This document shows, piece after piece, positions 5,060 to 51,396 of a stretch of DNA of 64,000 nucleotides (positions within the stretch are counted from its first letter, which is position 1; each line of letters opens with the position of its first letter). The stretch spans positions 2,304,001 to 2,368,000 of the forward strand of contig OZ243927.1 in NCBI GenBank assembly GCA_965213925.1. The letters are read 5' to 3'. This stretch comes from Trueperaceae bacterium. GTDB lineage: Bacteria; Deinococcota; Deinococci; Deinococcales; Trueperaceae. The translations under genes were made by a program, and so were the position numbers. Under the pieces are notes generated by a model. That model worked only from the letters and a program-made list of their open reading frames with translations. It was not told where the DNA came from and made no database searches.

Positions 5060-5163
5060 AAGGTAAGAATAAAATACCTCAGTACATTGTTAACCTAAGT
5101 TCGGAGTTTCCAAATAGCATAAGCATCTCCTAGAATGAGGGTGTTGAAGGCTCAAAAAAGGAG

Positions 5164-6070
5164 ATGCTTAGGACGAGTTTACTAGAATTGTTCTGCGAGG
5201 TGGATGACTTCTGCAGAGGCTTCGCGCTCTGGGCACATAAACAGCAGCTTGCTGAGAGTAGAAAGCGTGGTCCTAAGTGCCGCTTGAGCGTAAGCGAAGT
5301 GATGACGATCATGATTCACTTTCACAGTTCAGGCTACCGAGACTTCAAGAGCCACTACCAGAAACACGTGTGCAAGCAGCTTAAAGGTGAGTTTCCAGCA
5401 CTGGTATCGTACTCGCGCTTTGTAGAACTGACCTCAGAGGTTTTGCTGCCGCTTTGCGCCTATCTGCGAGCGAGTATAGGTGAAGTAACAGGTATCAGCT
5501 TTGTAGATAGCACGCATGTGGCAGTGCGCCACAACAAACGTATTGAACGCAACAAGGTCTTTGCAGGCTTAGCAGCGCGTGGCTGTACCGGCATGGGTTG
5601 GTTCTATGGTTTCGAGCTGCATCTCATCATCAACGATAAGGGTGAACTGCTCGCCGTCTATCTAACGCCTGGCGATACGGATGATCGCAAGCCGCTCGGT
5701 GTACTTACGCAAAACCTGTTCGGTAAGCTTTTCGGTGACAAGGGTTATCTCTCACAAGACCTCTTCGAAAAGTTCTTTGAGCAAGGCATAGAACTCATCA
5801 CGACCATCCGCAAGAACATGAAAAGCGCGCTGAAGCTTGAGGACAAGATTCTCCTGCGCAAGCGGTTCATCACCGTTCGTCCAGCTTGACTGGATCGAAA
5901 CGGTGAACGATCAGCTCAAGAATATCTCGCAGATTGAGCACACCAGACACCGAAAGCCTGCTAACTTTGCTGTCAATCTCATCGCTGGACTCATCGCCTA
6001 TCAGCACCAGCCCAAGAAGCCTTCGCTGAATCTGGGAGCTGACATTGACCCTCTCCCTGTCCTGATTTGA
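5164..6070 (+). pseudogene. IS982 DDE transposase frameshifted by a 22-nt insertion
   Basis: FVDST, GWFYGF, FGDKGY and IETVNDQLK motifs; deleting 5872-5893 gives one 294-aa ORF reading [14 protein letters not shown]. Confidence 0.9.
5872..5893 (+). repeat. 22-nt small dispersed repeat (ACCGTTCGTCCAGCTTGACTGG)
   Basis: 21/22 match to the reverse complement of 51280-51301; interrupted copies at 8225-8294 and 51236-51322. Confidence 0.85.
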
Positions 6071-6135
6071 CTTCGAACTTAGGTTACATGTAAGGTGATA
6101 GAATACAGCCATTCAGCCATATCCCGGAGGTCATC

Positions 6136-6393
6136 ATGTCCCTCGTTTGCATTGGAAGCAAACATCAGATTACGGTTCCCATTAAGGTGCGCAAGGAACT
6201 CGGTTTGGATGAGGGTGATTGGCTTTACGCCGAAGTGGAGGGCAACCGCATCGTGCTTACGCCTCAAGTTGTCGTGGAGCAAGTAGATATTAAAGCGGCA
6301 ATTGCCGAGGCTTTAGAGGATGCAAAAGCGGGACGGGTCTCGCCTGCCTTTAGCTCGTCGGAAGAGTTGCAGGCCTAGCTCGACGAAGAGTAA
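6136..6393 (+). CDS. AbrB/MazE-family antitoxin; orphan, with a probable premature TAG at 6376-6378
   Basis: QITVPIKVRKELGLDEGD motif; LDEE-TAA follows the TAG in frame; no toxin gene downstream. Confidence 0.7.
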
Positions 6394-6437: not shown

Positions 6438-7039
6438 TTAATCACGGTCAACATAAGCAAAAATTTCAACTTCAGCGTCTTCGTTTCCAACACCAACCAC
6501 GAACTTCTTGTCGGGAAAGAGGTCAGCTAACTTCCGCCGCCACATTGTCTCGATTTCTCTTGCGATAGAAACGACGACTTCCTGCGGAATATCGTTGTAG
6601 TCAGGGTCGTTCAGGCAAAAATCATCCAAATGTATATGGTTGTAGAGGTATTCAATGCTTGCGAGAGGTCGTCCTTCTTGCTTAAATCTGGCGATAATAT
6701 CCTCGAGGTTTTCCGGTATCCCTCCTTCGCGTAAGATGAGTCCATCTATCTCCACAAACTCAGGACTGAAAAGCTCGAGATATAAGACCATCTGATCGTA
6801 TCTTGCGTAATAAAGCAATTAACATAAACACTGAGCTTGAATCACGCAAGTATCATTCCTTAAAGTGCGTGCTAAACCGCGTTCTCTCTTCTCAGGTTGG
6901 CTCAAACCAAATGATACTTGCTATAGCTCCGATACGACGTTAAACGCTCTTCAATAGATTTAGTAGAAGAGTCATTAGCGACGTACCAACTCTCGAAAGC
7001 AGGAAGCTCCTCAAGAAGTTTGAGTTTTCTATCTGTCAT
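6438..7039 (-). pseudogene. Hypothetical protein (162 aa when restored) disrupted by a MITE
   Basis: Removing 6813-6923 plus one TA joins MTDRKLK...SYRS to YYARYDQ in frame. Confidence 0.8.
6813..6923 (-). mobile_element. 111-bp MITE, copy 1
   Basis: TA at 6811-6812 and 6924-6925; colinear with 10750-10860 and 17059-17169. Confidence 0.88.
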
Positions 7040-8161: not shown

Positions 8162-8318
8162 GAAGAGCAATGAGCAACGAGCAATGAGTTGAAAGTAAAA
8201 ATCTTTGATTTTAACTCACTGCTCACCGTTTCGCGTCTGCGAAAACTTCGTAATCGTTCACTACGTGAGGACTTACGTACACCAGCTCGACTGGGTTGCT
8301 TTCAACTCATTGCTTCTT
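8162..8318. repeat. Palindromic GAGCAAT-heptamer repeat with a nested insertion (8225-8294)
   Basis: Arms GAGCAATGAGTTGAAAG / CTTTCAACTCATTGCT; homologous to 51213-51396. Confidence 0.85.
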
Positions 8319-51213: not shown

Positions 51214-51396
51214 GCAGCAATGAGTACCGAGCAATCCAGTCGTACCCGCTTGCGCAGGGCACAGGGCTGGTTATGTAACCCAGTCAAGCTGAACGAACGG
51301 TCTTGCGAAGCAAACGAACGGTGAGCAATGAGTTGAAAGTCTTTGATTCTCACTCATTGCTCGTTGCTTTTAACTCATTGCTTCTTGTTGCTTTCA
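51213..51396. repeat. GAGCAAT-heptamer repeat with multiply nested insertions (51236-51322)
   Basis: Homologous to 8162-8318; contains an intact 22-nt element at 51280-51301. Confidence 0.85.

Follow-up and report, generated by a model that had tools for sequence, protein, structure and literature searches.

The gene at positions 5164 to 6070 of the window raises a simple question. What are the 22 nucleotides that interrupt an otherwise complete transposase gene, and how did they come to be there? An earlier note on this DNA had proposed a mobile element. The window is the whole stretch of DNA that was analyzed and is 64,000 nt (64 kb) long. Its source genome, G000, contains 4.75 Mb in 6 contigs, and the G+C content is 58.4%. 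Our verdict is that the 22-mer belongs to a family that is real and mobile, and that this family is closest to small dispersed repeats.

A 22-nt insert in an IS982-type transposase gene

The features of the interrupted element are listed here by window coordinates.

5091..6085, plus strand: IS982-type insertion sequence (IS), 995 bp, with a 15/16 terminal inverted repeat AACCTAAGTTCGRAGT

5164..5871, plus strand: N-terminal part of the transposase, 236 aa, with the C-terminal end RKRFI

5872..5893, plus strand: 22-nt micro-element, T variant, exact match; 5' tag ACCGTTCGT followed by the hairpin CCAG-CTTGA-CTGG

5894..6070, plus strand: C-terminal part of the transposase, 58 aa and a stop, with the N-terminal start IETVNDQLK

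The full 22-mer at 5872-5893 (plus strand) reads ACCGTTCGTCCAGCTTGACTGG. The number of copies expected in the 64-kb window was 0 (100 dinucleotide-preserving shuffles). The open reading frame 5164-5889 terminates at a TGA within the 22-mer, which would give a truncated protein of 241 aa. Removal of the 22-mer rejoins the two transposase parts (236 aa and 58 aa) into 294 aa, as the earlier note had read it. The first part matches positions 2 to 133 of the Pfam profile DDE_Tnp_1_3 (PF13612; E value, 2.7e-55), and the second matches positions 134 to 154. The profile breaks exactly at 133/134, and therefore the 22 nt split the domain with no position lost or gained. The rejoined C-terminal part fits an R-x3-E-x6-K signature, which we take to surround the catalytic glutamate of IS4/IS5-like DDE enzymes.

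No target duplication was found at the site, in line with the earlier note. Related IS copies read ...TTCATC^ATCGAA..., where the caret marks the point of insertion. The border is uncertain by one base (ACCG..CTGG or CCG..CTGGA) because the insert begins with an A and is followed by an A.

The host element has the traits of the IS982 family, namely, the DDE_Tnp_1_3 transposase, the length of 995 bp, and the 15/16 inverted repeat. It is present in four copies in G000. The copies are 99.9% identical, lie in four different places with differing flanks, and each contain one private substitution. All four contain the 22-mer at the same site. No other close or intact IS982 gene was found in the G000 assembly, which thus offers no candidate source of transposase. 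The G+C content of the element is 49.7%, against 58.4% for the genome, and the element was therefore probably imported. A small open reading frame beside it (window 6136-6378, plus strand) encodes an AbrB/SpoVT-like antitoxin-type N terminus (MSLVCIGSKHQITVPIKVRKELGL...), judged by eye.

Empty sites in related elements

With 4/4 IS copies filled, G000 itself offers no empty IS982 site, and the evidence for emptiness rests on relatives. We examined 41 genomes, 3 from the genus and 38 others from 29 genera of the same order. IS copies from two other genera of the same family (G024 and G014) align across the site with 68% and 63% identity. Each has one clean 22-nt gap, at TTCATC^ATCGAA and TTTATCA^TTGAA, respectively.

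Metagenomes yielded 508 confirmed homologues of the transposase, of which the best 80 were compared (50 to 72% protein identity). Among these best 80, the site of the 22-mer was uninterrupted in 79. The frame continues with no gap in 75, and 4 have a 3-nt indel some codons upstream. The remaining homologue (L106:1245-1334) contains a different insert of 37 to 40 nt (CGGACAGGCCCGGG...GACAG) about 60 nt upstream, and its frame is broken.

The earlier note had allowed that all IS copies might carry the 22-mer as native sequence. Part of this was found, since every G000 copy is filled; the relatives are empty, and further copies exist elsewhere in the genome. The 22-nt gaps in two genera and the 79 uninterrupted homologues rule out native IS sequence. 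These alignments support the reading of the 22-mer as an insertion into the IS982 element.

An adapter or misassembly artifact was also rejected. Independent short-read contigs carry the 22-mer, three species share its contexts, and its stem variants are compensated. Of four runs, all in the form of contigs, two metagenome runs carry the IS with the 22-mer, and the other two contained next to nothing of the window. No joint that skips the 22 nt was seen among the joints listed, and no fresh insertion event was observed.

Copies of the 22-mer in the source genome

Three further family members in the window are composite or nested.

8225..8294, plus strand: composite member with C-variant arms ACCGT..TCGT..CCAGCTCGACTGG, within a heptamer-repeat hairpin nest

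8230-8253 and 8258-8281: two nested 24-nt modules of the composite at 8225..8294

51236..51322, minus strand: composite member whose outer arms enclose the 21-nt module TTGCTTCGCAAG^GTTACATAA, which is split by the 22-mer

51280..51301, minus strand: second copy of the 22-mer, with one mismatch (C10>T), nested in the 21-nt module

The earlier note had reported a second 22-mer with one mismatch elsewhere in the window and had claimed that the ends of the 22-mer bound two other insertions. Both claims were borne out, by the copy at 51280-51301 (minus strand) and by the composites at 8225-8294 and 51236-51322, which have the 5' arm ACCGTTCGT and the 3' arm CCAGCTYGACTGG. The loop of the outer hairpin of the composite on the minus strand is replaced by a further insert.

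G000 contains 11 exact copies of the 22-mer, 24 with at most 2 mismatches, and 36 with at most 4 mismatches. Chance matches at the last threshold were estimated at about 0.3. The 36 copies with at most 4 mismatches are dispersed over the genome, and the note's expectation of further copies held.

The 22-mer consists of a 9-nt 5' arm and the 13-nt 3' arm CCAGCTYGACTGG, which occurs 64 times in G000. In 26 of the 64 occurrences, the 3' arm lies directly behind the 9-nt 5' arm and forms the compact 22-mer. The other 38 have 15 to 45 extra bases between the arms or a diverged 5' arm, and these longer forms are 37 to 67 nt. The extra inner bases are small units with a 3- to 5-bp stem and a TTCG, TACG, TGCG, or GAAA loop. 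On the opposite strand, the inner units are built like the 22-mer (a tag of about 10 nt and then a hairpin) and are located at CTGG^AC.

Most G000 copies lie in intergenic nests that consist of the heptamer CATTGCT and the hairpin GAGCAATGAGTGAA...TTCACTCATTGCTC; within these nests, they follow immediately after the hairpin foot. Flanks are common to many of the intergenic copies, and these may therefore have multiplied within larger repeats and not by movement of their own.

In a sister species, contig C4 of G001 contains the 3' arm of the family 12 times on the forward strand and 32 times on the reverse strand. GC skew was too noisy for placing the origin and terminus.

An intergenic repeat of about 110 nt was also observed at window positions ~6810-6925 (minus strand). 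It is present in more than 100 places in G000. It starts with AGCAGGTATCATCTGGT and ends with the inverted complement ..GATGATACCTGC.. At the gathering threshold, Rfam gave no match in the 64-kb window, and the 110-nt repeat is absent from Rfam. Some copies of the repeat contain a 21-nt module at TTGAG^ACAC, and this module itself bears the 22-mer.

Other filled and empty sites

Paired sites were found beyond the IS982 element. The spacer around the second window copy exceeds its orthologues in length by about 95 nt, and G001 and G002 lack the whole nested block. Within the abundant 110-nt repeat, a 21-nt module is intact in 12 copies, and a family member interrupts it at TGCG^AAGCA in 3 others. 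An IS3-type element (G000 C1:1.2412-1.2427 Mb) contains a 43-nt family member in orfA and the 22-mer in orfB. At the orfB site, its paralogue at 2.914 Mb is shorter by exactly 22 nt; this paralogue bears a 43-nt member of its own elsewhere.

The sister species G002 has the 22-mer in two copies of a DDE_Tnp_4 IS. G001 contains this IS (84% identity) in three copies, each 22 nt shorter, and two alignments between the two genomes have the clean gap AAC^ATG. G002 also contains three identical copies of an IS630-like element, all with the 22-mer. An IS630-like IS with 68% identity, present five times in G002 and once in G000, lacks a net 22 nt across the span. In three IS families, every copy within the genome is filled (4/4, 3/3, and 2/2). 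This pattern is not easily explained by a purely inactivating insert.

Transposase genes as insertion sites

G002 has 13 exact copies, 10 of them within transposase open reading frames at 7 independent sites. Three mismatched copies (L197b, L206, and L216) also lie in such frames. The transposase types at the loci are as follows.

L030: DDE_3 (IS630 type), between ...GSWLN and MVEIEF

L189 = L192, and L206: DDE_Tnp_4

L191b = L194 = L195, and L216: IS630-type HTH

L193: DUF4096 (IS4/5)

L196 (twice) and L197: IS3 type

The transposase families entered in the genus are IS982, IS3, IS630, DDE_Tnp_4, and IS5-like. One Chloroflexota MAG has the 22-mer within a DUF772 transposase domain. In two cases, the insert adjoins residues that we take to be catalytic. 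Both orientations relative to the gene occur, which argues for an event at the DNA level and not for a translational device. In silico excision in G000 restored a long frame for the IS982 copies only. The other coding copies in G000 are decayed IS3 elements, and the remainder are intergenic. Copies may be more frequent in IS genes than the fraction of dispensable DNA made up by ISs would suggest.

Target site, nesting, and hairpin

The tally of target sites, a check named in the earlier note, was made from 199 copies in 76 flank classes (G000, the sister species, and the Chloroflexota loci). It gave A at the base after the insert (+1) in 61/76 classes and C or T at +2 in 73/76. The base before the insert (-1) was C or G in 66/76. 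The insertion target follows a weak rule, 5'-S^AY-3'.

The 22-mer contains one S^AY site per strand, and these are both of the observed nesting points. Nesting at CTTG^ACTGG was seen in 9/78 of the loci listed by a strict count, and in more by eye. The other point is T9^C10, where the opposite strand reads CTGG^AC. Of the 78 loci listed, 7 have head-to-tail arrays that repeat every 22 nt. The arrays fit the S^AY rule because ...CTGG^AC is a target.

The CCAG/CTGG hairpin described in the earlier note was recovered. Alone, it has a predicted energy of -2.7 kcal/mol (z, -1.7). The A and Y behind the insert extend the stem to GTCCAG/CTGGAY. With its flanks in the IS, the predicted energy is -6.9 kcal/mol (z, -3.6), compared with -2.3 for shuffles, and 0/200 shuffles fold as well. 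The stem is nearly invariant (CCAG/CTGG in 135 copies). Six stems are double compensated, as CAAG/CTTG (two), TCAG/CTGA (one), CCGG/CCGG (two), and CCCG/CGGG (one).

Distribution

With at most 2 mismatches, each of the three genomes of the genus contains the 22-mer (24, 13, and 38 copies in G000, G001, and G002, respectively). None of the 38 other genomes, which represent 29 genera of the same order, contained it. A reversed-pattern control gave no matches.

A wider scan with a degenerate form of the 22-mer covered one genome per species and returned at least 78 loci. Those listed come mostly from Chloroflexota MAGs (Anaerolineae, Anaerolineales, Chloroflexia, and Ca. Desulfolinea). They also include one Trueperaceae MAG, which is the sister species G002, one MAG labeled Zixiibacteriota, and a few singletons in actinomycetes and others, which have one coding context in common. 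We have taken these singletons as chance or native sequence. No cyanobacterial record was present among the loci listed.

The 22-mer is found letter-identical in Chloroflexota MAGs. These carriers have 7 to 48 copies each, nearly all compact. In four of these genomes, the compact 22-mer accounts for 8/8, 29/30, 5/5, and 8/8 of the 3' arms. Tandem and self-nested copies are present among the Chloroflexota loci listed.

Two Chloroflexota loci, L097 (G041:C6:38000-56000) and L098 (G044:C31), contain 22-mers in same-strand arrays with a spacing of 0.2 to 3.4 kb. The arrays run between small unrelated genes, HigB/HigA-like pairs included, and have the look of cassette arrays. The two matches in viral contigs (L187 and L188, which are identical) are a G/C variant of the 22-mer. 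It lies in frame in a long open reading frame of low G+C, encodes PFVQLDW, and leaves the frame unbroken; it may be either an insertion or a chance match.

Search for a mobilizing enzyme

No mobilizing enzyme was identified in the carrier genomes tested by Pfam-type gene co-occurrence. The Y1 HUH transposase (PF01797, Y1_Tnp) has one match each in G001 and G041 and is absent from G000, G002, and G042. Reverse transcriptase (RVT_1) is encoded by four genes in G000. Among the carriers tested, Y2_Tnp was found in G045 only and TnpB-type genes were found in G001 and G045 only, and neither co-occurs with the 22-mer. IS110-type genes (PF01548) are present in 5/5 carriers tested and in 10/38 noncarrier relatives. 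The ends of multicopy IS110 elements in G001 and G002 have no likeness to the arms of the 22-mer. The earlier note had named HUH/RAYT, IS110, and reverse transcriptase genes as possible partners. Of these, only IS110 co-occurs, with unrelated ends; Y1 and reverse transcriptase do not.

GIY-YIG genes were rejected as the mobilizer. All five carriers have them, but so do 12 of 14 control genomes. A likeness upstream of a small GIY-YIG gene was traced to the abundant 110-nt repeat. Genes bracketed by two copies of the 22-mer included no nuclease-like gene; they encode a DeoR-like regulator, a membrane protein, and metabolic functions.

Several IS110-type and reverse transcriptase genes were observed along the way. 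A 7-copy IS110-type element in G001 (loci L250-L253) lies inside the terminal motif ACCAGATGA^GATACCTGCT of the 110-nt repeat. An 8-copy IS110-type element in G002 (loci L245-L249) lies in a different palindromic repeat. The reverse transcriptase open reading frames in G000 are four copies of one frame and encode 618 to 637 aa (C1:291528, 2670406, 3430718, and 3475506). They have no counterpart in the sister species and possibly belong to group II introns.

Alternative explanations

The 22-mer could be an REP-like element with a GTAG- or CGTC-style tag, moved by a RAYT or an IS200-type Y1 HUH transposase. Its conserved tag does precede a short hairpin in the manner of REPs, CGTC lies at the foot of the stem, and there is no target duplication; PMC3733652 reports CGTC-type REPs that likewise lack a dedicated transposase. 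But Y1_Tnp is missing from G000, G002, and G042, carriers with 24 to 48 copies, inverted pairs typical of REPINs are rare, and no REPtron-like gene is flanked by copies. The stem is 4 to 6 bp, against 8 to 9 bp for CGTC REPs in the same paper. We consider an REP origin unlikely. It is highly improbable that the 22-mer is the footprint or the extreme internal-deletion derivative of a larger transposon, with the forms of 37 to 67 nt as less deleted stages. Constant arms do enclose variable inner segments in 38/64 G000 copies, but no full-length parent was found, and each of the 64 3' arms in G000 has a 5' arm, standard or variant, no more than 80 nt away. The Chloroflexota arms are almost all compact (8/8, 29/30, 5/5, and 8/8). 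The inner segments are separate tag-and-hairpin units at the S^AY site CTGG^AC, and 22-nt tandem arrays exist.

Movement by an IS110-type recombinase (DEDD, bridge RNA) would account for insertion with no target duplication and for a liking for repeats. Its gene is present in every carrier tested, and a 24-nt variant of the 22-mer lies about 110 nt behind an IS110-type open reading frame (G000 C1:2646.9 kb). The carriers, however, represent three independent lineages only, and IS110 is common in noncarriers. The multicopy elements in G001 and G002 are located in other repeats and have ends unlike the arms, and a double-stranded circle of 22 bp is implausible as a donor. We give this route very little weight. 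Even less can be given to spread through an RNA copy and a reverse transcriptase. The nested modules have UNCG- and GNRA-like loops (TTCG, TACG, TGCG, and GAAA), which are typical of stable RNA hairpins, and G000 encodes the four reverse transcriptases. Yet G001 (13 copies) and G002 (38 copies) have no RVT_1 match, the borders are exact, and there is no poly(A) or other mark of retro-insertion. Least credible is that the 22 nt function within the IS as a signal for recoding or bypass and so allow synthesis of the transposase. In three IS families, every copy is filled and the copies are near-identical. For IS982 and IS630, the insert is in sense orientation, lies at a codon border, and reaches TGA six codons in. 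Against this, no RNA record with the IS was among those listed, homologues lack the 22 nt, other transposase genes have it in both orientations at unrelated positions, and the IS630 case has no matching take-off and landing codons. A +1 shift would add seven residues inside the R-x3-E motif.

Proposed history and mechanism

The 22-mer is probably a nonautonomous, ultra-small mobile module, the compact member of a superfamily of 20- to 22-nt tag-and-hairpin units that enter S^AY sites, putatively by peel-and-paste. The modules insert at this loose site and also into one another. In the IS982-type gene, the 22-mer was inserted precisely between two Ile codons with no target duplication, directly before the codon of the putative catalytic glutamate region. 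It shifts the frame, and the protein is predicted to end at the TGA inside the insert. Under so loose a target rule, it is very unlikely that a single position within a 1-kb IS was hit four times independently, and therefore the insert most likely entered one copy first. The filled copy may then have been multiplied in trans by a transposase that has since been lost, or the insert may have spread by gene conversion.

We infer that the module moves as a folded single strand. An enzyme encoded outside the element would cut this strand at its two borders, which are S^AY-like, and join it to DNA at a further S^AY site. Single-strand peel-and-paste logic appears to fit the anatomy best because there is no duplication, the borders are target-like, one hairpin stands at the 3' border, and nesting occurs in the hairpin loop. 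Known single-strand transposons have fixed tetra- or pentanucleotide targets, whereas the constraint on the left flank here is weak.

A bolder reading, which we regard as doubtful, is that a mobilization system so far undescribed (not Y1-HUH, reverse transcriptase, or DDE) moves 20- to 22-nt modules into S^AY sites in unrelated phyla, with transposase genes preferred for landing or retention. If so, the modules would be parasites of transposons and natural silencers of ISs that ride inside them between genomes.

A length of 22 nt is near the lower size limit of mobile DNA. The family offers clean material for study of the mechanism, with exact borders, independent filled and empty pairs, and a simple target rule that predicts nesting. 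Carriers in two distant phyla allow a comparative hunt for the enzyme. Transposase genes of at least five families are disrupted, and it may be asked whether modules of this kind restrain transposons. The inserts create pseudogenes and frameshifts that annotation pipelines are liable to misread. Machinery able to place a defined 22-nt tag in DNA with no seam would also be of technical interest.

Comparison with known systems

The closest known systems, compared by description, appear to be the small dispersed repeats (SDR1 to SDR8) of Nostoc punctiforme and its relatives. Nesting and an association with heptamer repeats were reportedly described for the SDRs of Nostoc punctiforme by Elhai et al. 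in 2008 (Genome Res 18:1484). We know of no mobilizing enzyme for the SDRs of Nostoc. The likeness drawn in the earlier note holds by size, precise insertion, nesting, and this lack of a known enzyme. SDRs are of the same size class (~21 to 27 nt) as the 22-mer with its 22 nt and many dispersed copies, and they insert precisely, as the 22-mer does with its filled and empty sites and no target duplication.

The SDR literature describes repeat modules of about 20 nt in Nostocaceae that insert precisely and are possibly mobile and tandem. SDR5 inserts between the third and fourth bases of HIP1, whereas the 22-mer targets S^AY. The hosts also differ, with SDRs in Nostocaceae and the 22-mer in a genus of Trueperaceae (Deinococcota) and in Chloroflexota. 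A 2018 paper states that, among HIP1-rich cyanobacteria, SDRs were not found outside Nostocaceae. Among the 15 literature matches listed of 2,545 for Deinococcota and Chloroflexota, a weak indication, none mentioned SDRs. Neither phylum is a subject of eight papers citing Elhai et al. 2008, judged by their titles. Unlike SDRs, the 22-mer is repeatedly found in transposase genes and is letter-identical across phyla.

REP and REPIN elements, palindromes tagged with GTAG or CGTC and accompanied by RAYTs, are described in PMC3116915 and PMC3733652. The 22-mer shares with them a tag beside a hairpin, a high copy number, and a mostly intergenic location with copies now and then inside genes. It differs by a far shorter stem, single units in place of inverted pairs, and exact empty sites. 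Its CGTC overlaps the 4- to 6-bp stem, and three high-copy carriers have no Y1 gene.

IS200/IS605 elements (IS608 and ISDra2) move by peel-and-paste with two subterminal hairpins and a fixed target of 4 to 5 nt. The 22-mer resembles them and their gene-less derivatives in the lack of duplication and of inverted ends, the dependence on a hairpin, and the seamless target-like borders. Unlike them, it has one hairpin, 22 nt in total, a loose target, and no Y1 enzyme.

MITEs are likewise nonautonomous, multicopy, and gene breaking. They exceed 50 to 100 nt, bear terminal inverted repeats, and create target duplications, none of which applies to the 22-mer. Its ends match in 5/7 positions at best, and no duplication is present at four clean empty sites. 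Nor is it an IS110-mobilized mini-element by its arms, which are unrelated to the IS110 ends of G001 and G002.

The byps of yeast mitochondria and the gap of T4 gene 60 are tiny inserts (27 to 55 nt) in coding genes. They likewise have a hairpin and a stop soon after the point of entry. The 22-mer differs in that take-off and landing codons are generally unmatched and both orientations occur. Against all of these systems, the notable points of the 22-mer are the identical sequence in two distant phyla, the target rule that explains its own nesting, and the recurrent sites in transposase genes.
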